Shown in pieces: positions 41,626 to 62,919 of a stretch of 64,000 nucleotides of DNA. The notes beneath the pieces were generated by a model, which was not told where the DNA came from, ran no database searches, and saw nothing but the letters and a program-made list of their open reading frames with translations. The stretch's first letter is position 1. Every line of letters starts with the position of its first letter. The DNA is from Leucoraja ocellata (Eukaryota): NCBI GenBank assembly GCA_036785375.1, contig JAWMAR010000329.1, positions 2,046,001-2,110,000 on the forward strand. The letters are read 5' to 3'. Both the position numbers and the translations under genes were made by a program.

Positions 41626-43097
41626 GTGATCGCATAAATCAACTACAAACAACTCTGGCCAGTTCGCAGCAGTTTCAACAAACCTTTGACGAGCTCAGGC
41701 TGTGGCTGGATGAGAAATGCAGCGAGCATTCAAGGAAATCTCCCGTGTCTGCAAACCTTGACATTTTACAATCTCAAATCAGTGAACAGGAGGAGTTCCA
41801 AAAAAGCCTGAATCAGCATTCGGGCTCCTATGAGATGATCTTGGGTGAAGGAGAGTCTCTGGTCCGTAGTGCTCAGACAGGTGAAGAAAAGACGAATCTT
41901 CAGAGTCAATTGTCGACTCTTAAAGGGCAGTGGGATGAGCTCTGGAAGCAGGCAGCAGGTAGATATTCGAAACTCAAAGACTGTGTTCAAAAAGCACAGA
42001 AGTACAGGCAGTACATGGAAGAGCTGCTCCCATGGATAGAAGAATGTGAATTTAAAGTGGAAGAACTGGGGATCACCATTGATCCAGCACAACTGAACTC
42101 CTCCTTAGCTAACGCAAAGGATCTACAACATGATGTGGAAAAACATCGCTCGCCGCTGGAAATGATGAACACTGCCGCTGACATCCTTGTAGATTCCTGT
42201 CAGGTGGATGAAGAAGATATTAGGGATGAAAAAACGGACATAAACCAGAGGATGGACATCGTTACAGAACGACTTCAAGCCAAAAGTGAATCAATTGAAG
42301 AAATGGCCCAAAGGTTAAAAGAATTCCAGGATTCCCTGAAAAGCATTCAAATGAAGCTTGATGGCACTAAACAGCAGCTTGAAATATACGATGCTCTTGG
42401 ATCACAGGCCTACAGCAATAAGAACTTGGAAAAGTTGAGGACTCGTCAGGAATCGCTTCAGATCTTGGAGTCGCAGGTAGACTATCTGAGAGACCTGGCT
42501 CAAGGACTGGCAGAAGATGCCCCTGATGGTGCAGATTCATCACGGCTCCTCCAGCAAGCAGAGTTAGTTCAGCAAGAATATGGCAGTGTAAAAGAGAGAG
42601 TGAATGAAAGTTGTTTGGCGATGGAAAATAGACTTCAGGGAATCGGACATTTCCAGAACCATATTCGGGAAATGTTTTCACATCTTGCAGACTTGGATGA
42701 CGAATTGGACAGCATGAGTCCCATTGGGAGAGACCTAGACAGTCTGCAGTCACAGATTGATGACATTAAGCAGTTTATCAGCAAACTTAAAGAATTAAAG
42801 AAAGATATTGAAAGTTCAGAAGAAAAATGCAAACAAATGCTGGAGGAGGAAGGCAGTCCAGATCTTCAGGGGCTGAAACGAGAACTTGAAGCCTTGAATA
42901 AACAATGTGGTAAACTGCTTGAACGTGGAAGGAACCGGCAAGAGCAAGTGGAGATGACTGTGGGACGTGTTGAAGACTTTTATGAGAAACTCAGAGAATT
43001 AAATAACCTTCTAACCAAAACTGAAGAGGGCGAGGAATTGCAAGGAAACGTGGGCACAGAAGTTGACGTTATCAATCAACAGCTGGCCAACTTTAAG
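41626..43097 (+). CDS. MACF1: MACF1 1472-nt spectrin-repeat exon (DRINQLQ...INQQLANFK), phase 1-0
   Basis: TCCAG acceptor, AAG|GTAAG donor. Motifs SLNQHSGSYE, DALGSQA, GLKRELEALNKQCGKL match MACF1. Confidence 0.97.
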
Positions 43098-44179
43098 GTA
43101 AGATTTGTTTAACTCTGCCTAGGGGCACTTACAGTCCTTGAACTTCTTTGAACAAAGTGATGAACAAATTCAAACTTTATTTAAAGCTTTTTAATTGTTT
43201 GAACTGTTATTCAAATATGCCCTTTTATTCCTGCAACTGTCAGAATTTAAGCCTCATTTGCTTTGATGATGAGTTTGAGCTTTAGTTTTTGTGGCCGTGT
43301 GTGCAATGAATATTATTAAACCTCTCAAAACTAGATCTTCTAGTTAGCTGGATCTTCAGGTCTAGGTGTTGTGAGTTGCTTATATAACAGGGACAGGAGC
43401 ATTCACAAGCATCAAATGGTCTCCTGTGCCAATAGAATCACAGAAAGTTGTGAATAAAAACAATTCCAGTTTTTAACCATTGCAATTTTAGGAATGATTA
43501 GGCCCCAAGTAAATAGAACTACAAAAATGCCTGAAAGAGTATAAAAGACCCATCAGCCATTGCTTGCTCCTGACAGTAATTTTACTTAAGATAGACACAA
43601 AGTGCTGGAGTAACTCAGCGGTTCAGCAGCATCTCTGGAGAAAAAGGATGGGTGACATTTCGGGTCATGACCCTTCTTCAGTTTTACTTTGTCTACTACT
43701 TTGCCTTTTGTTCACTAAATGCTCCGTATTATCATAATTTAAGGAAAAGCTTGCATTACCTTTTCAATGAAACATTCTAGATCATGATATCTATACGTTA
43801 AATAATTTTCTGCTATCTCCTTTAAGCCCTTTCTGTCCGAAGGAGTGCTAAACTAGGTTAGAATACATCTTGAATTTGCACACAGCTGTAAGCTGCCACT
43901 TGGACTAATATAGTGGTAACAAATCTAAAGGATACAAGTACCACACATCTCCAATGACCAAAGATACATTGTTCTGCTAAAAGTGAGCACTTGGGGTGGG
44001 GATTAAGGTTGTCGGGTCCACCACCTGCTACTCTCAGAAAAACGGCGGAGTTGTCGGGAAGAGCGTTTTGACGTCACATCTTAACTGTTTGGGAATCAAC
44101 AGCAGCTCCCCAGGAATTGACCTTTAAACCAAGGCAGAAGCTGCCCTCCATTTTCTACAGAAGGCCAGCTGTTAACCAC

Positions 44180-44475
44180 ATAACCATATAACAATGACAG
44201 CACGGAAAACAGGCCATCTCGGCCCTTCAAGTCCGTGCCGAACACTTATTTTCCCCTAGTCCCATCTACCTGCACTCAGACCTTAACCCTCCATTCCTTT
44301 CCCGTCCATATACCTATCCAATTTATTTTTAAATGATAAAATCAAACCTGCCTCCACCACTTCCACTGGAAGCTCATTCCACACAGCTACCACTCTCTGA
44401 GTAAAGAAGTTCCCCATCATGTTACCCATAAACTTCTGTCCCTTAATTCTCAAGTCATGTCCTCTTGTTTGAATC
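44180..44475 (-). mobile_element. CR1 LINE 3' end
   Basis: TRGHDLRIKG...NFFTQRVVAVWNELP on the minus strand. Confidence 0.9.
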
Positions 44476-46879
44476 TTGTTAAAATGAGATTGAAGACCAT
44501 ATACGCAATAGAAGATTTGTAAAAAATCAACGTTATTCATGCATTGCTCATCAACTAATGTTACTGCCCAGTATATACTAATGTGTCATATATACTTAGA
44601 ACAACTTCTGTAAGCAAGAAATGCCTCTATGGGTTCCCAATTACATTGTAGAAATTATTCACATAAAATCCCATCGTATCTCACAAACGTTTGATCTCCT
44701 GTTAGAATTTCTATACCCTAACTTTTCCAACTATTCCTCATTGATTCTCATCTCAGTTAACATTTTGGTAAACCAGCTCTCCCATCTTCACTTTCTTGTT
44801 TTGTTTATTAGTTGGATAAATGCGCAAAAGAAATGGCTTCAAAGATACTGTGCTAATAATAACACATATCTCAAATGAGAACTCTTAAAGTATTATTGAG
44901 ATTCCTTAGTCTAAATCGTTGTTTGTGTGAACCTTGGGAAAAAAATGGATGATGCGGACATATTACGCCAAACACTTCCATTACCTGATGAAAATTGCAT
45001 TAATTCCATTAATGAGCAACTGGCCTGAGCTAGCTTGTTATTCTGTTTTTAAAATAGCGCGCAGAATCTGTCACCTGTCTTCAGCTATTTGTGTTCCTCC
45101 CCAATTCTTGACATAGCAGTCAGTGTCTGGAGTTGTACAGCTCTACGCCTGTTGTCTCAGGACCCCGCCCTATTGAAGCATGGCCTGCCTTGAATATCAT
45201 GGCTTTTCTATTTTTAAGAAGTGATGCAGAGTAGAGAGCATTTAACAGCCGCCTTAATGGCTCCATTCTTAAAAGATTCGATCCACCCATAATTGAAGTG
45301 ATCTAAAACCTATGTTGTTTTAATTGTGGGATTTTCCCTCTCACAGCCTTTTTTGTTTAGATCATTCATTGCCCTTATGCTGCCCTTTGTGTAGGCACTC
45401 CCCGAGGAATGCATCCACAGGTGTAATTGCTCTTCAGTGTCTGCACATGTTGAACCCCAGACAGTGATTGTTAGCAGGCTATTAGAGTGCATGGCACGTC
45501 ACAATCTGAACTAACCTGAAATCAGGATATTTGCCCCCATTGTAGGATCACTGAATAACTATATTTTGGGCAACATTATCTGTTTATTTTCCCTTCCTTG
45601 AACCATGCAAGTCAACCCCATCTGTAGAGTCCATTGAGTGGATGAAATAGAACAGTACAGAACATGAAAAGGCCCAATTTATTTCAGAATGCAGATTAAA
45701 ATGGCATTTTTGCAAACAACATGCATTTCTTAGAACATAATGTCACCAGAACTCTGAATTTTAAAAGAAACCCCATGCTTGTGGTTTTTTTCAGGCTTCA
45801 TTTAATCTAGCTAGGAATTACCACTCAATTTCATCATTAAAATAATCAATCATGCACATTTACTTCAAACCACCCACAAAGGCAGGTTGAAGTTTCTAAC
45901 ATCTCAGTTTACAATTGAGCCTTAATAATCACTTTCTCATCTGAAAGGCAATTTTAAAATAATGAAAATAATTGATAATTGGTTGTTTTGATCAAAAATA
46001 GTTGTGTGATTGCACAGAAAAATAGTTTAATTTTATAACTTAATGTAGCCTCTTTTTTCATGTTCATTGTCTGCTCAATCAAACACTTAGTGTCTTAAAT
46101 AAAGTATTACTTGCTAAAATAATTACTCTAGATTGTTAAGGTTCACCTCTGTGGCAGGCAAAATATTCCTTTATACTATTTTCACTTGAGAAAATGATCT
46201 TGTATAACTTGGGAAGTAAGTTAATAGTTAAAATAAATATTTTTATTAACCTTGGTTCATTTGGTTTTACCATTGTTAGAAAGTATTTGAAGAGAATGAC
46301 TTATCTTTTTAGGTTGTGATGCCTGTAGATAAAGCAACAATTTATCATGAATACATATGTTCTTCAGAGACGTCAATTTACCAACATTTCAAAATTGCCC
46401 TCATACAATTTATCTTTTTTACAATAATCCATTACTTTACATATATTTTGTATTTAAGTGGCTTCTCGCGGAGTATTTTATTCCATGTAACATTTCCTCT
46501 TACTGTTTCTTTGTTTATGGCACAAAAACTTGCTTTAAAACCTTATACTTGTTAATAGTGTCACAAATATTCAGCTGCGGATCAGTACACAAAAGCCATA
46601 CCAGCTTATAAATAGAAATGTTATGAAAATAACTGCCTTGACATGTTGATGCAGTGCAGGAGTTGTATTCTACTTTCAAATGTAACTTCATAACAGCAGT
46701 CGCTATTGTTGTGTGAAGTTGTTCAGTGATGCCTTCAGCCAGTTTATCGGTGATCAGTCATCCATGTCGCACCATGTGAGGTGAAGTTAAACTCTCTACA
46801 TTTACTATATTGTGGTGTCACCTCTTATAAACAGTGCAGGGCAGAGGATTAAACTGCTTTGGCAGCCTATGTGGCTTAG

Positions 46880-47175
46880 TGTAGTTTAGATATACAGCAT
46901 GGAAACAGGCCCTTCAGCCTACCAAGTCCATGCTGACCAGTGATCACCCATACATTAGTTCTATCCTCCTCAATTGGAACAATTTGCAGAATCCAATTAA
47001 CTTATAAACCTGCATGTCTTTGGAACGTGAGAGGAAACTGGAGCACCAGGAGAAAGATACCCTTGTGGCCACAGGGAGAAAGGACAAACTCTATACAGAA
47101 AGCACCCGTTGTCAGGATGGAACATGGTTCTCTGGCACTGTAAGGCAGCAACTCTACCGCTGCGCCACTGTGCTG
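46880..47175 (-). mobile_element. tRNA-derived SINE
   Basis: Same family, near full length. Confidence 0.85.
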
Positions 47176-47414
47176 TTTCCAAATAGTAATGTTTCTGCAG
47201 ATCATTCCAGTCATCTGCAAAACATTTGTCTATTTATTCATGGTGTTCTACAGTAAACAGTTTGACATGCGGACTTGGGCTTATTTTAGTTTTTCAAATC
47301 CTTAGAAGGATTAAACTAGCTAATCAGGAATGTTAGGTATTTATCGCAAATATACATAATACATATTGTCACTTCTAAAGCCCCAAAGATTAAATCTTGG
47401 CCCTCTCTTTTCGA

Positions 47415-47745
47415 GTCATACAGTTTGGAAACGCCCTTCGGCCTAACTTGCCGACGCTGACCAACATGTCCCATCTACACTAGTCCCACCTGCCTGCATT
47501 TGGCCCATATCCCTCTAAACCTGGCTTGTATATGTACCTGTCTAATTGCTTCTTAAATAATGTGGTAATCCCTACTTCAACCACCACCTCCGGCAGCTCG
47601 TTCCATACACCCACTACCAATTGTGTGAAAAAGTTACCCCTCGGATTCCTATAAAATATTTCTCCCTTCACCTTAAATCCAAGGCCTCGTGTTCTCGATT
47701 GCCCCATTCTGGGTGAGACTCTGTGTCTTTCCGATCTATTCCTCT
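47415..47745 (-). mobile_element. CR1 LINE 3' end
   Basis: SRTRG...NFFTQLVVGVWNELP on the minus strand. Confidence 0.88.
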
Positions 47746-50700: not shown

Positions 50701-51339
50701 GGCTTTCGTGTCAAGCCTCTAATAAGCAAAGGGCCAAACAAATGCAGTAAAGATGCTGAACAAATATTGTTGTAAATTAAGTAAAAATGAATTATTTCCT
50801 TAATTGAAAAAAAAATCCGTGCAGTGGTTTAAACGTCCAATAAATGAAGAAAGCATGTGTAGGAAGGAACTGCAGATGCTGGTTTACACTGAAGTTAGAC
50901 ACAAAATGCTGGAGTAACTCAGCAGGACAGGCAGCATCTCTGGATAGAAGGAATGGATGATGTTTTGGTCTCGACCCAAAACGTCACCCCTTCCTATCCA
51001 TGATGTCTGTCCTGCTGATTTTCTCCAACATTTTGTGTCATTCTTAAATGATGAAAGCTTGTTCTTCCTCTTTGATGTTACTGCAAAAAAATCAAATGAT
51101 TCCTTCCCATCCACTATGCTGTTCGGAAATGGTTATCTGTAGTTCATTCAGTAACTTAATAAATAAATATAATCACTCGGTGTATCACTTTACTATACGT
51201 CACAGATGCAAACAACCCTAGAACATGTTCCAATGATTGATCAATAAATTCATCTTGGGGACAGCATTGACTGGAATTAGCTGCAGAATCCTGAGCAAAA
51301 TAAATGTTTGCCATGCTTCCCACTTCCTCTTCTAAAGCA

Positions 51340-52205
51340 AACTGTCTGCTCTACAACATTACCCAGAGGTTTACCATTTACTGTGTAGGTCCTGCCCTTG
51401 TTCGACGTCCCAAAATGCAACATCACACTTCTCTATATTAAATTCCATCAACCATTCCTCTGCCTACCTGGCCAATCGATCCAGATCCTGCTGCAATCGT
51501 TCACAACCATCTTCACTATCTGTAAAACCACTAACTTTTGTATCATCAGCAAACTTGCTAATCTTGCCCTGTACGTTCTCATCCAAATCATTGATGTAGA
51601 TGACAAACAATATCGGGCCCAGCACCGAACTCTTAGGCACACCACTAATCATGGGCATCCAGTCTGAGAAGCAACCTTCTACCATCACCCTCTGCTTCCT
51701 TCCATGGAGCCAATTTGCTATCCATTCAGCTATCTCTCCTTGGATCCCGTGCAATCTAACCTTCCAGAGCATCCTACCATGCAGAACCTTGTCGAATACC
51801 TTACTGAAGTCCATGTACACAACATCTACAGCTCTGCTCTCATTAACCTTTTTGGTCACGTCTTCAAAAAAATCAGTCAGATTTGTGAGACACGACCTCC
51901 CACGTACAAAACCATGCGGACTATCCCTCATCAGCCCTTGCCCATCCAAATACCTATATATCCTATCCCTCAGAATTCTCTCCAGTAATTTACCAACTAC
52001 AGATGTTAAGCTCACCGGCCTATAGTTCTCAGCATTTTCCATGCAGCCCTTCTTGGAAAGAAGTACAACATTTGCCACCCTCCAGTCTTCCAGCACCTCT
52101 CCTATATTTAAGGATGTAAATTTCAACCAGGGCTCCCGTAATTTTCTCTCTAATTTCCCACAATGTCCTCCGATATATCTGATCAGGCCCTGGGGATTTG
52201 TCAAG
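51340..52205 (-). mobile_element. CR1 LINE ORF2 reverse transcriptase fragment
   Basis: NYRPVSLTSVVGKLLE, HGFVRGRSCLTNL, YMDFSKVFDKV, GVPKSSVLGP, KFADDTK. Truncated, with a stop after the FADD motif. Confidence 0.95.
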
Positions 52206-55079
52206 ACAATGTAGCACCAACAGACTCTTCCACAGATGGACTAGTTGCAGGCAAACAGCTCGGAGAAGTAAATGGTTGAGTAGGTGATAAGGTAATCCTT
52301 TGTGTTCCAGGAGGTTCTCAGTGCCACCCAGAATGCTCCTTCTCCATCTTAAGAATTCATGGGTGAGAGATTCCTTGGAGTCAGTGGAGATGGTGAATTT
52401 CTTCAAGGAATACATCTGTAGATCCCCATCCTTTCCCTGCCATGAAATCTTTTCCCACGGAATAGTGTCTGTTTCAGGAATCTACTGTCAGAAATGCAAA
52501 CATCGTGGCATGCCTACCCTAGTCAGCAAAGTGATAATAGGGCTTCAGCACAGTGTTGGTCCAGGATAGTAACTCTGGTCCACTTGTTCTGCCAGTGAAT
52601 TTGGAGAATTTGTTTGGACACCATTGTAGGTAATGTAAGGAGGGCGCTGACCTCCCACTCATGATCCAGTTATGTCTGCTAAGTAGATATGTGGCAGCAC
52701 TGGTCTCTAAGATCAATGGAATTAGGGAGCCAAGAGAGAAGCAATGCATCTGAAATGGGAACTGAAATGCACCAAAATTATTTATTAAGTTTAAACAATA
52801 AGCTGTGTCTTTTGGCAGAGATATAAACAGCACCATGAAAATACAAAACTATGTAATGTGTCATTCTAAAGGATCTTTAAAATTACTCCAACGCTTTATG
52901 CAACTATTGATATTTCTATCGTTTGATGTTCTATCTTGATTGGCGCATCTGGATTTCAAATGTCAGGTATTTTATTCAACTACGCTTGCTTTGAATGTTG
53001 AAGCCTCCAGTCAAATGGTTAATTAGAAGACTGGAAGTGCGATGCTTCCACCAAAGACACAGGACTCGGACCTCTCCTGTTTCCTCGGTAACCGTTGACA
53101 AACTTCAGTGCGGCCGATCAAATTTGCCACCAACTGAGCACGTACTAATTGGGGAAGGTGGGGGAACTTTGCAGGGGGGATAAATTGTATTTTTATATCT
53201 TGCTAGTACTTTGGACTGGTACGTTGGTACTTGCAGTTGTTATTGTCAGTGCTGATGTTATGTTGGCTTTTAGTTTAAAAGAAGCACATTTATGTTGAGA
53301 TACAAACGCAGAATGTTTCTTCGCACTTAGGTTTTCAGGTGTGTGTGTGTGTGGTGCACCCCAGCTTGGATACGTTGATATTATGCACATAAATGCTTCC
53401 CTGCCTTTCCAGCAATTTTGCCCAGGTTCCTGTTTTATTGATCACCACACTTCTTCTTATGCGTTTTGTTCTCTGAACATTTAATCATTTCTTTCCCATG
53501 TCTGTCAGTGGTTCTGTGACCTTTGCACAGTGTAAAGACCAGAGCTCCCCAGTACTCTTAAATGTGAGTATAGGAGCAGGGAGGTTCTACTGCAGTTGTA
53601 CAGGGCCTTGGATGATCAGCCATGATTATATTGAATGGCGGTGCAGGCTCGAAGGGCCGAATGGCCTACTCCTGCACCTAATTTCTATGTTTCTATGTAG
53701 CCAGATTTGGGACTTAAACAATTTTAACACAACTCAGTGTTTTTGTTAGCCTTTTAGTTTGCTGTTCATATTACTTTTAAATAATGTAATTGCCAGTACT
53801 TTGGTTCTGTCATAACATTTGTAAAACTACAATTGCACACAAACTGGGTTAACAATAGAAAGATTTGACGTCTAATTTATTATTAATCCTCACGATTTAA
53901 ATCAGTGAATATTTCCTAATCTAAAGATTTCTTTAGGAATGACTGCACAGCAAAATACCAAGTGTTGTTATCTGGAACATTGACGATCATTGTGATAACT
54001 GTACTTCTATAAATGTAAAGATCTAATTTTTGAGGGAAATCTTAGTGAGGGCAGACTATTGTTTTAAATTGTTGTTAAAGTGCAGGCCCCGTGTTGAAAG
54101 TAAAATCTTGAGCCTTTGTTCACCCCCCTTCAATATGTGTGGTTTAGAAAAATAATTGCTCACAACCAAAGGCATGTTTGAAAAGATAAAGAATATATTG
54201 TGACTCAGATTAATATTATTTCATGTGCTCCACTGGATACAGACAATTATTATAATTTGAATTTCCATAGATTCTGCTCCAACATTTTGATTATGTTGTA
54301 AAACAGTATGCTGGGGATGTTACACTGGAATATGATTGCTGTTTATCTTCAATACTATGGTTGTATCCTTGTAAAAGGATGAGAGTAGCAAAACAAAGAA
54401 GCCAAAACAGGAACTGGAGAGGCACCCAGGATGTGACAAAACAGAAAAAGAATTTTGAATTGATCAATGTTTCCGTAGCAAGATTGCACTGAAGGAGTAC
54501 ACATATTAATCCCTTAGAATCCTCACATTATATTGGCTGAACTTGTCTTGATGAAAACTTGTTTTTGCAATGCACAGAGGGGCTTGCTCCTTAGGTTTTT
54601 ACTTCAGATGTTTATTTGTTTTGTCATCTTGTTGAATCATTTGATATTCAAGAAGATCCCGATAAAGTCAATATTAAAATATTTGAACTTGGATCATATT
54701 CAGAGTAATATTTTGTAAATAAATTAATCTGCGATTTGTAAAGTTTGAGAACTGTAAAAGGTTTATGATCAAATATTTGTATTAATTGGCTTTTAAAAGC
54801 AAGATTATGCATCGTTTTTCAATGGTAAATTAATTATGTAATGTGGAATTTTCAAGTTATTTTTTTTAATCCTATGTTAATTTAATTTTGAATGAAAACA
54901 GACACCTTAGAGTTGACATTTCACGGCAAATTGCAAAGTTTTTTCAATGTTGAATCTTAATCTAAAATTGAAGGCTTTGCTTCCTTCCATAACACACTTC
55001 CCACAGTTATGTCACGTATGCAAACTAAAGCAAAAGTATGAGACAAACAGCCATTAAAGAGTCAACTTTCTGAAAAGCT

Positions 55080-56581
55080 GCAGTTTGACCACATGGGGCT
55101 GAAACGTAATCGGGGAAGGGGAGAGTGCACAAGGTCGAATCTTCAGTGGCATTCATAATGTTGCGCGATTGGCGGTGAAAATAGGATCACAACAGATGCT
55201 ATTCAGTGTTGTGTGTGACAGAGCAAGTGAGGGGGAGAGGGAGAGAGAGAGAGAGCAACCAAAAAAGGGCGTTTCTTTGTCTGTACAGCAAGGAGACACT
55301 GAAGTCGGTTGAGAGAGGAAAGAATCCAGTGGAAACCGTTTGCTTAGAGTACTGCCTAAGATCTTGTGGCAGTTTTACAATCAAATAAAAGAAGTAAGTG
55401 TTTAAAACTCTTTTTAACCTCTTCCTAAGTTCTGGAAAGTTGACAAGGCTGCTGCAAGATTCTTTGTGGTGAAGAGAGCGTAACTGCATCTAATTAGGCA
55501 CAGAAGCTGACGTAGGCTATGGGATTAATCACAGCAGCTTTACATTGCCCATGAACAAACCAGTCGTGCTAACTTTCTCTAGACAGCACATGCTAAGGAA
55601 GGAGCAGCGCTGGGATTTTTGGAAAAGCTGGACAGAGCGTGGCAGCTCTCAACACTCTTTTGTTCAACAGCAATAGTTTGCCTTGTACAACGTGACAACT
55701 GGACCCTACGTTTTGAAGAGAATTGTCAGTCATACCTCTCGCAGTCTGGTTGCTGCTGTTCACAACGCAAAAGGAGAAAGTTTTTTTTAACCAACATCTG
55801 AGGAAAAATAAAAATAATGCCTGGATTAAAACGGGAATAAATAGATAAACGAACCTTGCTGGAAGAGGATCCGTGGCTTTAAGAGCAGTGCATTTTAAAT
55901 TGGAGTTAAACAGTGTAAACTGTACACTGACTGGAATTACAGGATTTTGCCAAATACCTTAAACCTGAAAAGTATTTATTTTCCAATCAATAAATTAATA
56001 GTTTTCTCTCAAGGAAGTCTCATCTGGAAACTTTTAGCCATTGTTCTGAAGTTGAACACTTTTTTAAAAAATGCCATGATGTTGCTAAGGGAGGAAGCAG
56101 CTGAAGCCCCACTGATTGAAGAACTTCCTGTCTTTGAATCTGCCGGAATATCCGCCAAGAATCACTTTTCAAAAGAAAACATGTGGAATTTCAAGGACTG
56201 CCTCTCTTGCAGCAGCTGGGCATTTGGGCATTGTAGTTTGTGGTTAAAATGAAAGGAATTTGCACAGAGTTGGAATACAGTCTTTGAAATACCTTTCTCT
56301 TGTCAGCCGTCATGCATTTGAACTGAAAACTCGAAAGAATCCGAATTGAATGCACAAATTGGTTTGGTTGTTGTTTTCCTGGAATGATTTTATAGTTTGC
56401 CTGGGCTTCATTGGTATGACAAGTGAGTAACATGTTGTTGGAATATCTAAATATAACGGCGTGCCTTTTGGATTAAAATATACGGATACATTCTACTATC
56501 GGATGTGGAATACAGTTCATTATCTTTTTTTTAAAAATTGATCTACTTTGTACTGTGGGTATTTGAAATTCCAATCTAATT
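55080..56581 (+). promoter_or_regulatory. Candidate internal promoter and long 5' leader of the KIAA0754-like exon
   Basis: No recognisable repeats. Inverted CCAAT (GATTGG near 55167), GA-rich tract 55229-55255, CRE-like TGACGTA near 55508, several upstream ATGs. The TSS cannot be located from sequence. Confidence 0.45.
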
Positions 56582-59500
56582 ATGGGGAAGCCACTCAGTA
56601 GGCCAGACTGTTTGCGACGTAATAATCCCACCTGTTTAAGAAAGAATGAAGAGGACGACATGTACATTGAAGATTGCTACATTCCGCAAAGATCTATTTA
56701 CGACACCATGAGAATTAATGAACAGATAGACCTCGGGGCAAAGGCTAACCCGCCATCAAGATGTTTTGTTGACCACACACATTCGCAAACCCAGAGAGCT
56801 GTGGACTCGAGCACTTTATCAAGTAATGGAACGCCCACTACATCAAATGTATTTGAAACGCGATTTAGTTCTGAAAGTAAAAAGTTGGATGAAAGACTTA
56901 TATTTGACGCATTAAAACTGAGCAGTGATGTTATTCGGTCTTCTGGTCCACCAAAGCGGAGACCGCACGTAGAGAGAAAGGAAAACACAAATAGGAGATC
57001 CTGGAAAGCTTTCCTGCCTCCAAATTTCCCAGACTTCACAGAACGAACGGAGGTGTCCGCCAATGAGCCGACCGGTAGTTCTAATTCAATTAAAGAGAAG
57101 AGGCTTTCTAGCCACTTGCTTGCTGAAAGTCCTGATCTATCTTCTGAAAAAGAACTGATCGTAGCTAAGTCAACAATAGAAAATGAACACAAATCTGCCA
57201 GAACCCTGGTCTTTCAGCAAAGAGCAGAAAGCAAATTGAAAACTCCTGCAGTTTTATCTCAAAGTTCAGAGAGTGAAAGTGCTCCATTAATGGAGTGTAA
57301 ACATGTACTGGAGATGGCAAGATTTTTACCAGAGCATCATACAAGTATATCTGCAACATGGCCCAGAGCCTTCAAGGCCCAAGGGACATTGGAAGATGCC
57401 TCATTTCTACATAAAAGAACAATTGATCTGGCACAGGAAAGTATCGTTACCTATGCAGCATCTCTGGAATGTCGAGGGGTGTTGGATTCTGGTGCAACCA
57501 GACTAGATGTGCAGGAGGTTACAGCTGAATTTGATGAACAGAATTATGAAGAGGCTTGTAAATGCCACATTAACCCTGAGATGGTGCACCGGTGTGAAAC
57601 TGAAGAAATGCTATTTACGTCAGAATTTCTGAGTGAAGAATTAGCACTTCAGCAACTAGATGCTGTAATCCTGGAAGGTAGAGAGGAAGATACTGACTCC
57701 CTATTGCAGTTTGAGCAAGAGGAGCAAAGATTGACTGAGGAAAAAGACAATCTCATTGAAGACTCGGTACCTCAACAGTTAGATCGCTTAATTATTAAGC
57801 AGGTAGATGACACAGTCACTCCAATATTTGAAAAAGAAAAAGTGATTGATGACGAGGAGCCTGGTAAGAAACAATTTCACCGATATACTGCAATAGAGGT
57901 TGTACAGGGAGATACTGAATCACTAATACAATTTAAAGATGAAAGAAACCCTATGGATAATGAAAGGTATATTTCTGAGGAATCATTTCAGCTAGATGAT
58001 GTAGCCTTGGGGGAGGCAGAGGGGGATACAGATTCTCTGATACAATTTGAAGAAATGGAGCAAAGCCTCATTGAAGATGCAGAATTGTACGATGAATTGG
58101 CATTTCAGCAACTAGATGCTGTCATTTTGGAAAACACAGAGGTATTCCATTTTGCAATGCAGCTTGAAGAAGATGGGAGACTGATTGAAGATGAAAAATT
58201 CCTGGATGAAAAATCAGCACTTCAGCAGCTCGATGCAATCATCTTGGAAAACACAGAGAGAGATGCAGTCTCTCCCACACATTTTTACGAAGAGCAGAGA
58301 CAGACGGAAGACAATTTCATTTTTGAAGAGGCTGCACGTCAATTGGATGCTGTAATCTTGGAGAACACGAAAGGAGATGCAGACTCCCTCCTCCAGTTTG
58401 AAGATGAAGAGCGAAAGATGATTGCAGACAGCAAAGATCTCTTTGAAGAATCAGCATTTCAACAGCTGGATGCTGTCATCTTGGCAAGCACAGAGGGGGG
58501 TGCACATTCGTTAAGGTTTGAACAGGATGAGAAGAGAGTTATGGGGACGGCCAAAATAATGGAATCCGACGTATTAATAGAAGGGGAAAAAGAATTTATA
58601 ACTTTACAAACATTGAGCTCTTTAGTCAGCCGGAGTTCAGAGGAAGAGAAAATATTTGAAGAGTTAGAAAACAAACAGCATCGCCTGAGGAGAGTTATTG
58701 CAACTGAACAAAGATCAACTACTTCTACAGAATGGAAATATTATGCTGATCAGAAAGAGATATCCGAATGTATCTTTCTACAAGGGTCTGATACTGACCC
58801 TGATGCCAATGTAAATCAAGAACTTACAAATGTATCTGAAGAAGACTACAATTTACAAATTGGTCACGATGCCTCCGAAGTTATGATCGATGCAAATGAG
58901 GTGTTCATTGACGAAAATAGTAATAAAGATGAAGAAACCGCATTTGTGGTGGAGGTTACAGGTAGTGACTGTGAAACTTTAATTGACGGATGTGGAATGC
59001 AGAGTACTGGTGTAAAATGTGAAGGACAACTAAACTCTCTTCATTTCGAAGAATGTGAACCAATTGCTCTTTGCCCCCCAGCAAATCCATGCACACCAAC
59101 AGATTCAGATCTTGCTCATTATGCTCAGGAAGTGGTCATGTTGTCTGCTGTTGAAGAAAATCCGGACATGCCGACAGACTTTGTCCACTTAAATGAACAT
59201 CAGCTTATTACTGAAATTCCTTCAACAGATTCCATCGAAGCCTCGTATCTCGATCTCTCGCACTGTGCTCAGCAGATGGCAACGTTGCACTGTGTGGAGG
59301 AGACCAGGGATATGCAGGCGGCTTTGGTCCAGTTAGAAGAATGTGAAATGGTTGCTGAGCCCCCTACGACGAGTTGTCCTTTCCATCCTTTAGCACCTAG
59401 TGTAGATTTCACAAACTGTTCTCAGGAAGTTATAATTTCTAATGTGATTGATGCAGACTGTGATGCAGACAAACTTCCTGGTAATTCCGATGAAGAAGAG

Positions 59501-60208
59501 CATGATTTTAATTTGGAAAGTAAAAGCCTTGAATTTGAAGAATGTGAAGTTAATGTTCAATCAGAGTTCTCTGACTTAGTGGAGTCTGATGCAGCAGAGA
59601 TTCATAGTCTTCAGAGGGACAACTTCACTGATTTTCAATGGGACAAACAGAAAGGTTTGATAGAGTTGGATGCAATAATATGCTCAGACATTACCGACCC
59701 TGTTGCTTTAGATCCAGTGGACACTGATACCACAGAAACACCATGTAACAGTGATAACTCAAAAATAAATTCTACGCCGGATGCGCTTGTTCAACACGGG
59801 ATAAGTGAGGTCTTGTTGATTGATGAGGATACTGACGAGCAGGTACTCGAAGCAATCAGGTTCCTTTTCCAATCTGACGAAGATGAGGAAACTATTAACA
59901 CCACCATGGAAAGACAAGCAAACAAAGCTCAAAGTTGGGAGACTAGCCTGCAGGCTGATGTGCTGGAAAATGTTTCCACTTCATACCTTGATGATGACTT
60001 TATCGAAGAAGGAACGCTGGAATCTTTATTTGAGATGCAGGAAGCAAGCTTTGAATCCAGCCCTTGGGGATTATCCTTAGACCCAGGACCACTCTGTGAA
60101 CTGGTTGAGACCGGTGGAGGCTGCTTCGCTGTGAAAGCTAATCAACTCGATTCTTCTGCTCAAAGTGATACAGATGATGAGGTATTTATCTTCCTCTCTG
60201 ATGCTTAA
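56582..60208 (+). CDS. KIAA0754: KIAA0754-like 1208-aa acidic ORF nested in the MACF1 intron; probable alternative first coding exon (56582-60181 if spliced)
   Basis: Strong Kozak (A at -3, G at +4). N-terminus MGKPLSRPDCLRR...YIEDCYIPQRSIYDTMRINEQID and blocks KKLDERLIFDALKLSSDV, RRSWKAFLPPNFP and SATWPRA match human KIAA0754 as recalled. Same intronic position within MACF1. Confidence 0.9.
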   Translation: MGKPLSRPDCLRRNNPTCLRKNEEDDMYIEDCYIPQRSIYDTMRINEQIDLGAKANPPSRCFVDHTHSQTQRAVDSSTLSSNGTPTTSNVFETRFSSESKKLDERLIFDALKLSSDVIRSSGPPKRRPHVERKENTNRRSWKAFLPPNFPDFTERTEVSANEPTGSSNSIKEKRLSSHLLAESPDLSSEKELIVAKSTIENEHKSARTLVFQQRAESKLKTPAVLSQSSESESAPLMECKHVLEMARFLPEHHTSISATWPRAFKAQGTLEDASFLHKRTIDLAQESIVTYAASLECRGVLDSGATRLDVQEVTAEFDEQNYEEACKCHINPEMVHRCETEEMLFTSEFLSEELALQQLDAVILEGREEDTDSLLQFEQEEQRLTEEKDNLIEDSVPQQLDRLIIKQVDDTVTPIFEKEKVIDDEEPGKKQFHRYTAIEVVQGDTESLIQFKDERNPMDNERYISEESFQLDDVALGEAEGDTDSLIQFEEMEQSLIEDAELYDELAFQQLDAVILENTEVFHFAMQLEEDGRLIEDEKFLDEKSALQQLDAIILENTERDAVSPTHFYEEQRQTEDNFIFEEAARQLDAVILENTKGDADSLLQFEDEERKMIADSKDLFEESAFQQLDAVILASTEGGAHSLRFEQDEKRVMGTAKIMESDVLIEGEKEFITLQTLSSLVSRSSEEEKIFEELENKQHRLRRVIATEQRSTTSTEWKYYADQKEISECIFLQGSDTDPDANVNQELTNVSEEDYNLQIGHDASEVMIDANEVFIDENSNKDEETAFVVEVTGSDCETLIDGCGMQSTGVKCEGQLNSLHFEECEPIALCPPANPCTPTDSDLAHYAQEVVMLSAVEENPDMPTDFVHLNEHQLITEIPSTDSIEASYLDLSHCAQQMATLHCVEETRDMQAALVQLEECEMVAEPPTTSCPFHPLAPSVDFTNCSQEVIISNVIDADCDADKLPGNSDEEEHDFNLESKSLEFEECEVNVQSEFSDLVESDAAEIHSLQRDNFTDFQWDKQKGLIELDAIICSDITDPVALDPVDTDTTETPCNSDNSKINSTPDALVQHGISEVLLIDEDTDEQVLEAIRFLFQSDEDEETINTTMERQANKAQSWETSLQADVLENVSTSYLDDDFIEEGTLESLFEMQEASFESSPWGLSLDPGPLCELVETGGGCFAVKANQLDSSAQSDTDDEVFIFLSDA

Positions 60209-60383
60209 CATCATTTTTAGGAAACACAGTTGCTTGGGCTTCGCATGAAACCCCATTTGAAACTGCTGAGCTTTATTTACAGTGTCTTGTGACTAAATTA
60301 GAAATGTAGAACTTTTTGATGGATTTTCATCAACAACTGCAATATTTGTAACCGTTTTAAGTAACAATTTCCCTCCAGGGATG

Positions 60384-60389
60384 AATAAA
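60384..60389 (+). terminator. Candidate AATAAA poly(A) signal about 175 nt after the KIAA0754-like stop
   Basis: AATAAA followed by T/GT-rich sequence. Context resembles a retroelement 3' tail. Confidence 0.35.
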
Positions 60390-62919
60390 GTTTTATCGTA
60401 TCGTTAGTAAACTGTGTGTGACTTCAGCCTTTCAAGGTCCTTCACCATGAGCTGCATTCAATGTCCTGTTTGTGAAATACATTTACTATATTATGACCTT
60501 CATATTACTGTAAATATATTTCACAAACACTCATTAAAAGCTTCCGCAAGATCTATGTCACTGTGGCAACTATTATTGCTCAGCTAATTACTTAAAACAA
60601 AATGTATGTGTCGACGGAGATGGGGCCATTCCGTTACGAGGAGAGACTGTACCGGTTGTCTTTGTTTTCCTTTGAGTGGAGGAAGCTGAAAGGAACTTGA
60701 CAGGGATGTACTAAATTACACGAGGCTCATAGAGGGTGGACAGGGACATACCTTATCCACAACCAAGACGTCTGAAATCAAAGGGCATAGCTTTAAGGTG
60801 AGGGGGAGAGGGGACCTGAGGAATATATTTGCAATCTAGCATGTAGTGCCTGAAAAGATAGGAGGTAAGTGCTTGCAACATTATACATTTACCTGGATAA
60901 GCTCTTGAATCACCAAGGCAAGGAAGGGTGAAAACCAAGTGCTGCTGAAAGGGATTGGTGCAGCTGAGTGCCCAGTGGTCAGCGTGCACCACGGCGCCCA
61001 TTTTTGTGTCAATGTTTCAGTAATATAGAAGCTAAAGGTAGAATGGGAGAAAATAAATGTGGCATTGGCTGTCGATGGTTATTACAGGATGAGGTTGGAT
61101 AATATTTCAATGCCGACATAATGTTTATTTAGATTCCGATGAAAGATTTTTTATTTAGCTTCTTTGAAATTACCGCTGCACAGATTAGGTTTCAAGTCGG
61201 GGCTCAGATTTGGTGATTTGCATGGTTTTAATGTGGAGGTGCAAGCAGACAAGTTTGATTGTTAAAAATATTTCTGCTGGCCTGATTAAAATCCCTTTAT
61301 ATTTTGTATTCGTACACCAGATAGAGATGGAGCTACCAAGGCTAACGTTACTCTTCACTTACTGTGTGAGAAAGTAGTGCTACGGTGCCTTCTCTAACTG
61401 CTGTGATCCATTGTTGAAGGTGGAGAGGCTGTTAGGTGGAGAGTTCAGCACATTTTCTCAGCAACAGTGAAGGAATAGCAACATGTTGTGCAGCGTGGAG
61501 GTTGCACCTGCAATCATTGACTTTTTATTTGGAACAGGTCAGGAGTATAGTCAAATACGTTTTAACAAGTTGATTAAATACAGATGACAAACGTAGAAAT
61601 AAGGAACTGCAGATGCTGATTTACGAAATAAAAAACATAAAAGTGCTGAAGTAACTCAGTGGAACAGGCAGCATCTCTGGAGAACGTGGATAGGTGACGT
61701 TTTGGGTTCAAGTTCACATTTATTGTCACATGTTGAGTTACATGATATTTGAGTTACCATGCAGCCATACAAGTAAAAAAGCAAACCATACACAATAGAG
61801 TTTAACATAAACATCCACCACAGTGGAATCAGCACTCTTCACTGTGATGGAAGGCAATTGTGTATTGTTGCTGTCCCTACCACTTCTTATTTTTGTTTCA
61901 TTTTGTTTATATGTTTGTAATTTGCTTGTTTTAATCTGTAAGGTGTCATTGAGAGTCCTGAAAGGCACCCATAAATAAGATGCATTATTATTAATATTAT
62001 TATTAATAAAGTTCAGTCATTCTTTGTTCAATCATTCAGATCTGATGAAGAGATAGTTTTAGAGGGAATGAATGATTACGGTGTGGGATGGGCGGCAAGT
62101 CCAGCTGGCTACTTTGCCTCAATAGTGTTGTTGTGATTTGAAATTGTTGGCATTGCACCCAACCAAAGCGAGTAGCAAGCACCATATCACTTGTGCCTTG
62201 TTATCAGGGTGTGAATATGTGAGTCGCTTGCCATATGATTTAGTCTCTGACCTGCATTTAGAGCCATGGTCGTTACTTATCTAGCTGTTGTTGAGATATT
62301 GGTTAATGGTGACAACCCCTCCCCCCCCCCCACACACACACACACAACCTACCCTCTGCAAGTTGCTGATAGTGGGGGCCGGGAAACTGCTTGTGCACGT
62401 CAAAGATAGGTGCCTAGACATTGGAGGTGCTCATTGCCTGACACTTGACACAAATGCTACTTGCCACTTGTCTGCCCATTCCTGCACTTGCTCTGTTTAT
62501 TTTCTCTTTGTGCACTCATCCATACATGATATGAATGCAGTATGATCGGTATGGATATCATTGTGCTTTTCACTGTATCTTAGTACACGTGACAATAATA
62601 TACCAAAAACAATCTGGAACTCCCTCCCTCTGATGGCTCGTTGAGATAATTATTCTGGCAGCATTTAAGAAGTAATTAGATGAGCGCTTGAAATTGTACA
62701 GATGTTCATGAACCAAATGCTGAGAAATAGGATTCCTATGGGCCAGCGTGTACCAAAGGCCTGTTTATGTATTGTCTGACTGGATTTGTATTGTCTGACT
62801 GGATTTGCTCCTTTTTCTGTTTTCAGGTGCTTTATATACATTAGAGCTCGCCATATTACCTGATAAATATATTCCAAAGTCTTGTACTTTCATATTCCTA
62901 TATTTTGAAATCAAAGTGG

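Follow-up and report, generated by a model that had tools for sequence, protein, structure and literature searches.

An ancient alternative head exon of MACF1 with a predicted acyl anchor in Leucoraja ocellata

Spectraplakins bind microtubules through their EF-hand, GAR and tail regions (PMC8012552), and in the available text of the reviews every isoform keeps the plakin domain, six isoforms being given for MACF1 (PMC3352950, PMC8012552, PMC4914211, PMC12918444). Departures from the canonical layout have been described in parts of this literature. MACF1c, of ~600 kDa, retains the plakin domain and is without the actin-binding domain (PMC4914211, PMC8012552), and the type-3 first exon of dystonin (BPAG1a3) carries a myristoylation motif (PMC3352950). 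Human MACF1 is cut by caspase and post-translationally myristoylated at Gly5087 in apoptosis, as tabulated in the supplement of PMC4200515, and MACF1CTL, a gene beside PLEC, is described as encoding only the rod end, EF hand and GAS2 (PMC8782857). Finally, the legend to Figure 1 of bioRxiv 10.1101/122010 mentions a further exon, common to dystonin and MACF1 by conservation, that may be its own isoform or an alternative start. The locus considered here is a 3.6-kb open reading frame (ORF) within a MACF1 intron of Leucoraja ocellata, referred to below as the head exon. The window, that is, the whole stretch of DNA analysed, comprises 64,000 nucleotides (nt) of the forward strand of GCA_036785375.1 (JAWMAR010000329.1, 2,046,001-2,110,000), and coordinates count from its start.

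As an alternative start of MACF1 the head exon is real, of ancient origin and already annotated, and both of its forms, spliced and unspliced, are entered in UniProt/RefSeq as MACF1 isoforms 6/7 (KIAA0754; presumably accession O94854). On balance, the evidence leans towards an acyl-headed MACF1 isoform that is transcribed from a likely internal promoter, is built on the distal rod, and is predicted to hold microtubules at the membrane without actin. New here are transcript support in a cartilaginous fish, a dystonin twin in the same intron, a depth reaching to hagfish, and a list of invariant residues.

The head exon and its join to the distal rod

The ORF extends from an ATG at 56582 to a TAA at 60208 on the forward strand (1208 amino acids), and none of 20 base shuffles of the window gave a stop-free frame longer than 215 amino acids. 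An earlier sequence-only reading had placed this ORF in a MACF1 intron, which is borne out: the downstream exons are 68-74% identical to four MACF1 references versus 63-65% to four dystonin references, and a paralogue on C95 shows the reverse pattern, being nearer the dystonin than the MACF1 references. The window contains spectrin-repeat exons 5' of the head exon. The local features are as follows (a slash in a motif marks an exon boundary or a cut, and X1 is an assembly discussed below).

41626 to 43097, forward strand: upstream constitutive MACF1 spectrin-rod exon, ending AAG/GTAAGA in a phase-0 donor, the rival donor for the same acceptor
55421 to 56581, forward strand: transcribed leader, at least 1.16 kb in X1 (contig pieces at 55421-55638 and over 55855)
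56582 to 60181, forward strand: coding part of the head exon, very probably an alternative first exon of MACF1 (1200 codons, phase-0 GT donor; join backed by X1 contig geometry)
60182 to 60208, forward strand: read-through tail of 8 residues past the donor to the stop, giving the unspliced form of KIAA0754 / isoform 7 type
60384 to 60389, forward strand: AATAAA, 176 nt 3' of the stop, which may serve the stand-alone form as an intronic poly(A) signal

Codon 1200 ends in phase 0 at GAG/GTATTT (60181/60182), the same phase as the donor at 43097; both can be read directly in the DNA. The next rod exon lies outside the window, ~7 kb downstream (C329 2113250-2113411, or 67250-67411 counted on from the window). 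It begins TTTCAG/ACG TTT CAA and encodes TFQKVQVDP in frame from both 43097 and 60181, so that the in-frame splicing proposed earlier is possible. The join reads DDE/TFQKVQVDP here, DIE/TFQKVQVDP in catshark and ...NSDE/MFQKEQVDP in the human MACF1 record. It recurs in reptile, bird, amphibian, teleost and hagfish gene models, and two Logan-derived dystonin proteins (P0030, P0032) carry it as well. The human facts given by the sequence-only reading hold at the level of the databases, where KIAA0754 records have the same N-terminus, and its claim of an isoform devoid of the actin-binding and plakin domains agrees with the lack of an upstream acceptor, the X1 join and the same join in human and catshark models.

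Two of the transcript assemblies, X1 and X2, behave like spliced RNA, in that their contigs fit exon limits and unique intron bins are empty (depth zero). One 914-nt contig of X1 (depth 8.2) tracks the ORF to 60181, beyond which it has 28 unmatched letters; the upstream-exon contig (depth 9.4) overruns 43097 by 28 letters; and a 4900-nt contig starts at the AG of the acceptor. The two overhangs of 28 and that AG are what a 31-mer graph predicts when two exons with only a final AG in common converge on a single acceptor. This geometry constitutes strong but indirect support for the join at 60181, the overhang letters themselves being unread.

Several points weigh against the proposed isoform at this level. 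X1-X13 were taken as RNA by guess. Transcripts beginning upstream of 56582 and leaving at 60181 had been predicted from the sequence; X1 provides cover from 56582 back to 55421 as well as the junction geometry, but the join is backed in only one (X1) of the four assemblies aligned to the junction region. X2 and X9 cover parts of the ORF and stop short of the donor, and X3 leaves the final kilobase of the ORF uncovered, uncovered parts not being taken as absence in these three or in X4. X20, raw RNA reads of a relative of which 6% were read, gave nearly no cover, too little to interpret. Finally, the leader of the head exon contains 15 upstream ATGs.

These ATGs, together with a transcription start that the assembly contigs do not locate, would suit an arrangement in which the head exon is not a first exon but serves full-length MACF1 internally or terminally, or else belongs to a transcript that is translated poorly. 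Such an arrangement is highly improbable. A stop lies in frame 15 nt 5' of the head-exon ATG with no AG in between, which precludes in-frame splicing of any upstream exon ahead of that ATG; three full-length rod models go directly from 43100 to 67244, bypassing the head exon; and in X2 one 8635-nt contig unites 41623-43097 with the next rod exon, again skipping it. The protein N-terminus is moreover invariant, which implies translation from the head-exon ATG. X1 cover reaches back to 55421 and there is no usable acceptor, although contigs of this kind cannot show a start. Very probably, the head exon is an alternative first exon spliced to the distal rod.

It is also improbable that the main product is a stand-alone single-exon protein (KIAA0754 / isoform 7) that ends at the stop at 60208, uses an intronic poly(A) signal and has no link to microtubules. 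Such a form is represented in UniProt by the 1115-residue mouse isoform 7, whose record is named both 'Isoform 7 of MACF1 isoforms 6/7' and 'KIAA0754'; AATAAA occurs at 60384, and positions 60235-60518, past the stop, are thinly covered in three of four assemblies (X1, X3 and X9; depth 0.7-1.6). However, the X1 contig that leaves at the donor has a depth of 8.2 versus 0.7 past it, the length of the read-through tail ranges between 4 and 62 residues across the 82 homologues scored, and MACF1, dystonin and hagfish all retain the donor phase and the join. The thin cover and the AATAAA allow for a minor read-through form beside the spliced isoform.

The remainder of the gene is found on a second copy. 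The C329 copy is interrupted after the next rod exon by a 200-N gap (69352-69551 counted on from the window), and a second MACF1 copy on C63, whose ORF is intact and whose identity to the first is 98.6-98.8% across 38 kb, holds the rest; its exons cover 2193 of the 2258 downstream residues of a wombat model, through the EF hands and GAR domain. Between the head ORFs of the two copies there are 7 base differences, of which 5 change a residue, all within the spacer. The isoform accordingly has a spectrin rod, EF hands and a GAR domain (exons on C63, domains in the reference model). It begins downstream of the plakin domain and is without it, being the product of a spectraplakin gene and itself no plakin. 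The MACF1 (C329/C63) and dystonin (C95/C402) regions are each present twice, like retained haplotypes.

Observations on the flanking DNA are limited. The CpG observed/expected ratio 5' of the head-exon ATG is 0.4-0.55, the median for the window being 0.39. At 55165-55267, 1.3-1.4 kb 5' of the ATG, there is a GA-rich tract preceded by a short motif, and a comparable GA tract lies ~1.1 kb 5' of the dystonin head, in an alignment too weak to count. A promoter signal at the sequence level was considered and rejected: the dystonin 5' flank has in common just the GA tract and one 15-nt match (E-value 0.97). Within the intron, high-copy interspersed repeats occupy 43500-44500, 46900-47700, 50850-52200 and 53560-53700, and the assemblies reach depths in the thousands over them.

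Relatives and age of the head exon

With residues 1-160 as the query, 65 of 150 candidates matched among longer proteins and 230 of 564 among proteins near the ORF in length (120 of these listed), and a profile search of 1.84 billion representatives yielded 51 matches. The matched records are named MACF1, MACF1 isoforms 6/7, KIAA0754 or dystonin, and the nearest named relative among the matches listed is from catshark (89% over residues 1-160). The head matched no Pfam family and gave no usable match in the ESM Atlas.

A second head is present in this genome on C95/C402, inside dystonin, between the paralogues of the upstream and next rod exons. It has a phase-0 donor at codon 447 and is 54% identical to the MACF1 head over residues 1-155; no third head paralogue was found in this genome. 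Counting only models that start MGKP and carry the join, MACF1-type heads (n = 32) have a median of 1102 residues (307-1404, the short ones looking like model artefacts) and dystonin-type heads (n = 26) a median of 429 residues (367-459).

A hagfish model has a head of ~607 residues joined at the same rod position, and its rod is 50% identical to MACF1 and 48% to dystonin. In a tree of 38 rows (1 left out), the hagfish head has a long branch and is placed between the heads of MACF1 and those of dystonin. Because the head exon is present in this one gene model and in both paralogues, we infer that it predates both the cyclostome split and the duplication that separated MACF1 from dystonin. The sequence-only reading, which had proposed an ancient jawed-vertebrate isoform of MACF1, was right about antiquity; restriction to MACF1 is contradicted by the dystonin twin, and restriction to jawed vertebrates by the hagfish model. 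No invertebrate head occurs among the 18 named of the 51 profile matches, which is weak evidence of absence, and the head found no counterpart in a sea-urchin MACF1 model. Record P0296 is labelled lamprey dystonin-like but groups within teleost dystonin (100/99); being likely mislabelled or a contaminant, it was left unused for dating.

Three teleost records (P0062, P0065 and P0207) show the head joined to a rod that begins ~610 residues further on, and two of them have EF hands and a weak GAR domain at the C-terminus. Judging by the gene models, they are possibly duplicates that keep the head isoform only. An assignment of P0062 and P0065 to MACF1CTL was rejected, as both nest in teleost MACF1 at 100/100.

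N-terminus, conserved blocks and spacer

The features of the encoded head are as follows.

56582 to 56647, forward strand: residues 1-22, with a myristoylation-type start (Gly2, Lys3, Ser6, Arg7) and predicted acylation sites at Cys10 and Cys18
56666 to 56731, forward strand: block 2, residues 29-50, DCY.PQRSIYDT.R.NEQID, a predicted partner-binding motif common to MACF1, dystonin and hagfish
56885 to 56920, forward strand: block 3, residues 102-113, LDE..IFDALKL, conserved
56993 to 57019, forward strand: block 4, residues 138-146, RRSW..F.P, conserved
57644 to 58561, forward strand: about seven acidic spacer repeats of ~40 residues, QLDAVILE...DSLLQFE, with QLD cores at residues 358-628

Gly2, Ser6, Cys10, Cys18 and the nearby basic residues are arranged as the sequence-only reading described, and residues 1-22 have a net charge of +5 in this ORF. 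Conservation was assessed in 213 distinct homologues chosen for an MGK start (12 of the 65 longer-protein matches have other modelled starts). Within this set, P4, L5, S6, P8 and C10 are invariant, position 7 is Arg in 209 and Lys in 4, and at least two Cys fall within the first 22 residues in all 213; Cys10 and Cys18 are conserved across heads. The invariant Gly2-x-x-x-Ser6-Arg/Lys7 at the exact N-terminus conforms to that part of the definition of N-myristoylation. Starts of the form MGKxxS are represented among the enriched HeLa myristoylation matches (ARF6, HPCAL1, NCS1, GLIPR2 and TMEM106B; PMC4200515, supplementary file 2), and N-myristoylation substrates with Lys3 are documented in the available part of PMC7048800. 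Myristoylation, palmitoylation or both are thus predicted for the head and are probable, with Pro4 as a caveat.

Other observations tell against this prediction. The PROSITE myristoylation pattern excludes Lys3. The net charge of residues 1-24 is just 0 or +1 in 191 of the 213 homologues, so that a polybasic stretch would be a weak second membrane signal. Twelve of 20 MGxP starts were checked in the HeLa myristoylome table, and the sole match, MCAM, is predicted to be non-myristoylated (PMC4200515); KIAA0754/O94854 is absent from all six supplement files of that study. A search of two supplement files of PMC5498535 for palmitoylation of the head protein gave no match. Acylation is left as a prediction because there is no Pro4 substrate among the 12 starts, no KIAA0754 entry, and little positive charge.

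The same observations would fit an isoform that is real but whose head is a protein-binding module, for a partner or a metal, with Gly2 not myristoylated. Conservation extends beyond what N-myristoyltransferase reads, since P4, L5, P8 and C10 are invariant and 33 diverse heads show almost no variation in the three blocks (residues 29-50, 102-113 and 138-146); Cys32 is kept in 204 of the 213 homologues, with Gly in the remaining 9. The missing Pro4 substrate and myristoylome entry point in the same direction. Nevertheless, a head of this kind is rather unlikely: Gly2, Ser6 and a basic residue 7 with at least two nearby Cys, in 213 of 213, is the usual layout for dual acylation, Lys3 substrates exist, and acylation and binding motifs are not mutually exclusive. 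A divergent group of teleost heads (P0213, P0215, P0216, P0220, P0223-P0226) has additional N-terminal cysteines, which counts in favour of acylation, and Gly in place of Cys32.

Beyond the blocks, the spacer contains 22% Asp and Glu (net charge -172, isoelectric point 4.2), and has no transmembrane stretch (maximum Kyte-Doolittle value 1.17). Seven of eight segments lie on the disordered side, so that composition suggests a disordered chain. From residue 160-390 onwards the ORF aligns to catshark alone among seven heads compared; the acidic repeats are likewise found in catshark and unmatched in the six non-chondrichthyan heads compared. The long acidic spacer proposed earlier is therefore present here, but its length and sequence differ between lineages.

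Proposed function and comparison with known systems

In the proposed acyl-headed isoform, transcription would begin from a likely internal promoter at least 1.2 kb 5' of the head-exon ATG. After removal of the initiator Met, N-myristoyltransferase would acylate Gly2 and a palmitoyl transferase would act on Cys10 and Cys18, whereas the three blocks within residues 29-146 may, judging by their conservation, bind partners beside the membrane. A disordered spacer of free sequence, ~1000 residues in MACF1 and ~280 in dystonin, would lead into ~2260 residues of rod, EF hands and the microtubule-binding GAR/tail region. The product of ~3460 residues would lack an actin or plakin link, and spacer and rod together would set the distance between microtubule and membrane. 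Given acylation, the isoform would very probably act as a membrane-to-microtubule tether. A wider view, that all vertebrates possess an overlooked acyl-anchored and actin-free spectraplakin back half, produced from an internal promoter in MACF1 and dystonin with a lineage-tuned spacer and serving as a direct microtubule-membrane tether, is offered tentatively and is less likely to be right than wrong.

That the N-terminus is invariant in both paralogues, and in species as distant as hagfish and human, points to a constant role. If the head is acylated, MACF1 and dystonin each provide an actin-independent anchor of microtubules to membranes. The head isoform would escape 5' knockouts and 5' patient variants and would be hit by GAR-domain variants, and this differing exposure bears on how spectraplakin phenotypes are read; were the wider view true, a whole back-half class would survive knockouts and patient alleles that affect the actin-binding and plakin exons. 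Back-half genes could then have arisen through this internal start, namely the teleost MACF1 duplicates with head and shortened rod and possibly MACF1CTL. The isoform is better recorded than the earlier remark on its little characterisation implied, being named in UniProt/RefSeq as MACF1 isoforms 6/7. A search of the open literature (subscription papers being outside its scope) found no functional study of KIAA0754 or the head isoform and no match for the N-terminal peptide of the head.

Human and mouse KIAA0754 are the closest counterparts of the present exon. They share its N-terminus (65-67% over residues 1-160, E-value ~1e-55), its intron, its join to (M/T)FQK.QVDP and its read-through form. 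Only the spacer departs, being 22% acidic with ~40-residue repeats here and giving no alignment to bony-vertebrate spacers beyond residue 160-390. The dystonin head exon occupies the same intron and has the same phase and next exon as the MACF1 head in this genome, but is ~430 residues long versus ~1100. To judge from its legend, the extra exon of bioRxiv 10.1101/122010 is probably this internal head exon of dystonin; the available text of that preprint gives neither a motif nor a function for it.

The described lipid-anchored forms resemble the head isoform in part. BPAG1a3, as outlined in PMC3352950, is likewise an alternative first exon that gives a spectraplakin a predicted lipid anchor, but it sits 5' and keeps CH2, the plakin domain and the whole rod, whereas the MACF1 head replaces these together with the proximal rod. 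The Gly5087 fragment tabulated in the PMC4200515 supplement also places a myristoyl-Gly ahead of the same distal rod and tail. Its cut site is kept here as a caspase-type DAPD/G (42516-42545, within the upstream rod exon and 190 residues ahead of its donor), and cleavage there would leave a back half with a lipid anchor, closely resembling the head isoform. That fragment is, however, proteolytic, apoptotic and headless, and the site is not kept in dystonin.

Truncated forms provide the remaining parallels. Like MACF1c as described in the reviews (PMC4914211, PMC8012552), the head isoform is without the actin-binding domain; unlike MACF1c, it is also without the plakin domain, and a head with ~2260 further residues is expected to be ~390 kDa. 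MACF1CTL, in the available description (PMC8782857), is again a spectraplakin back half expressed alone, but from a separate gene. The head isoform stands in UniProt and is not among the six MACF1 isoforms given in the available text of the reviews.

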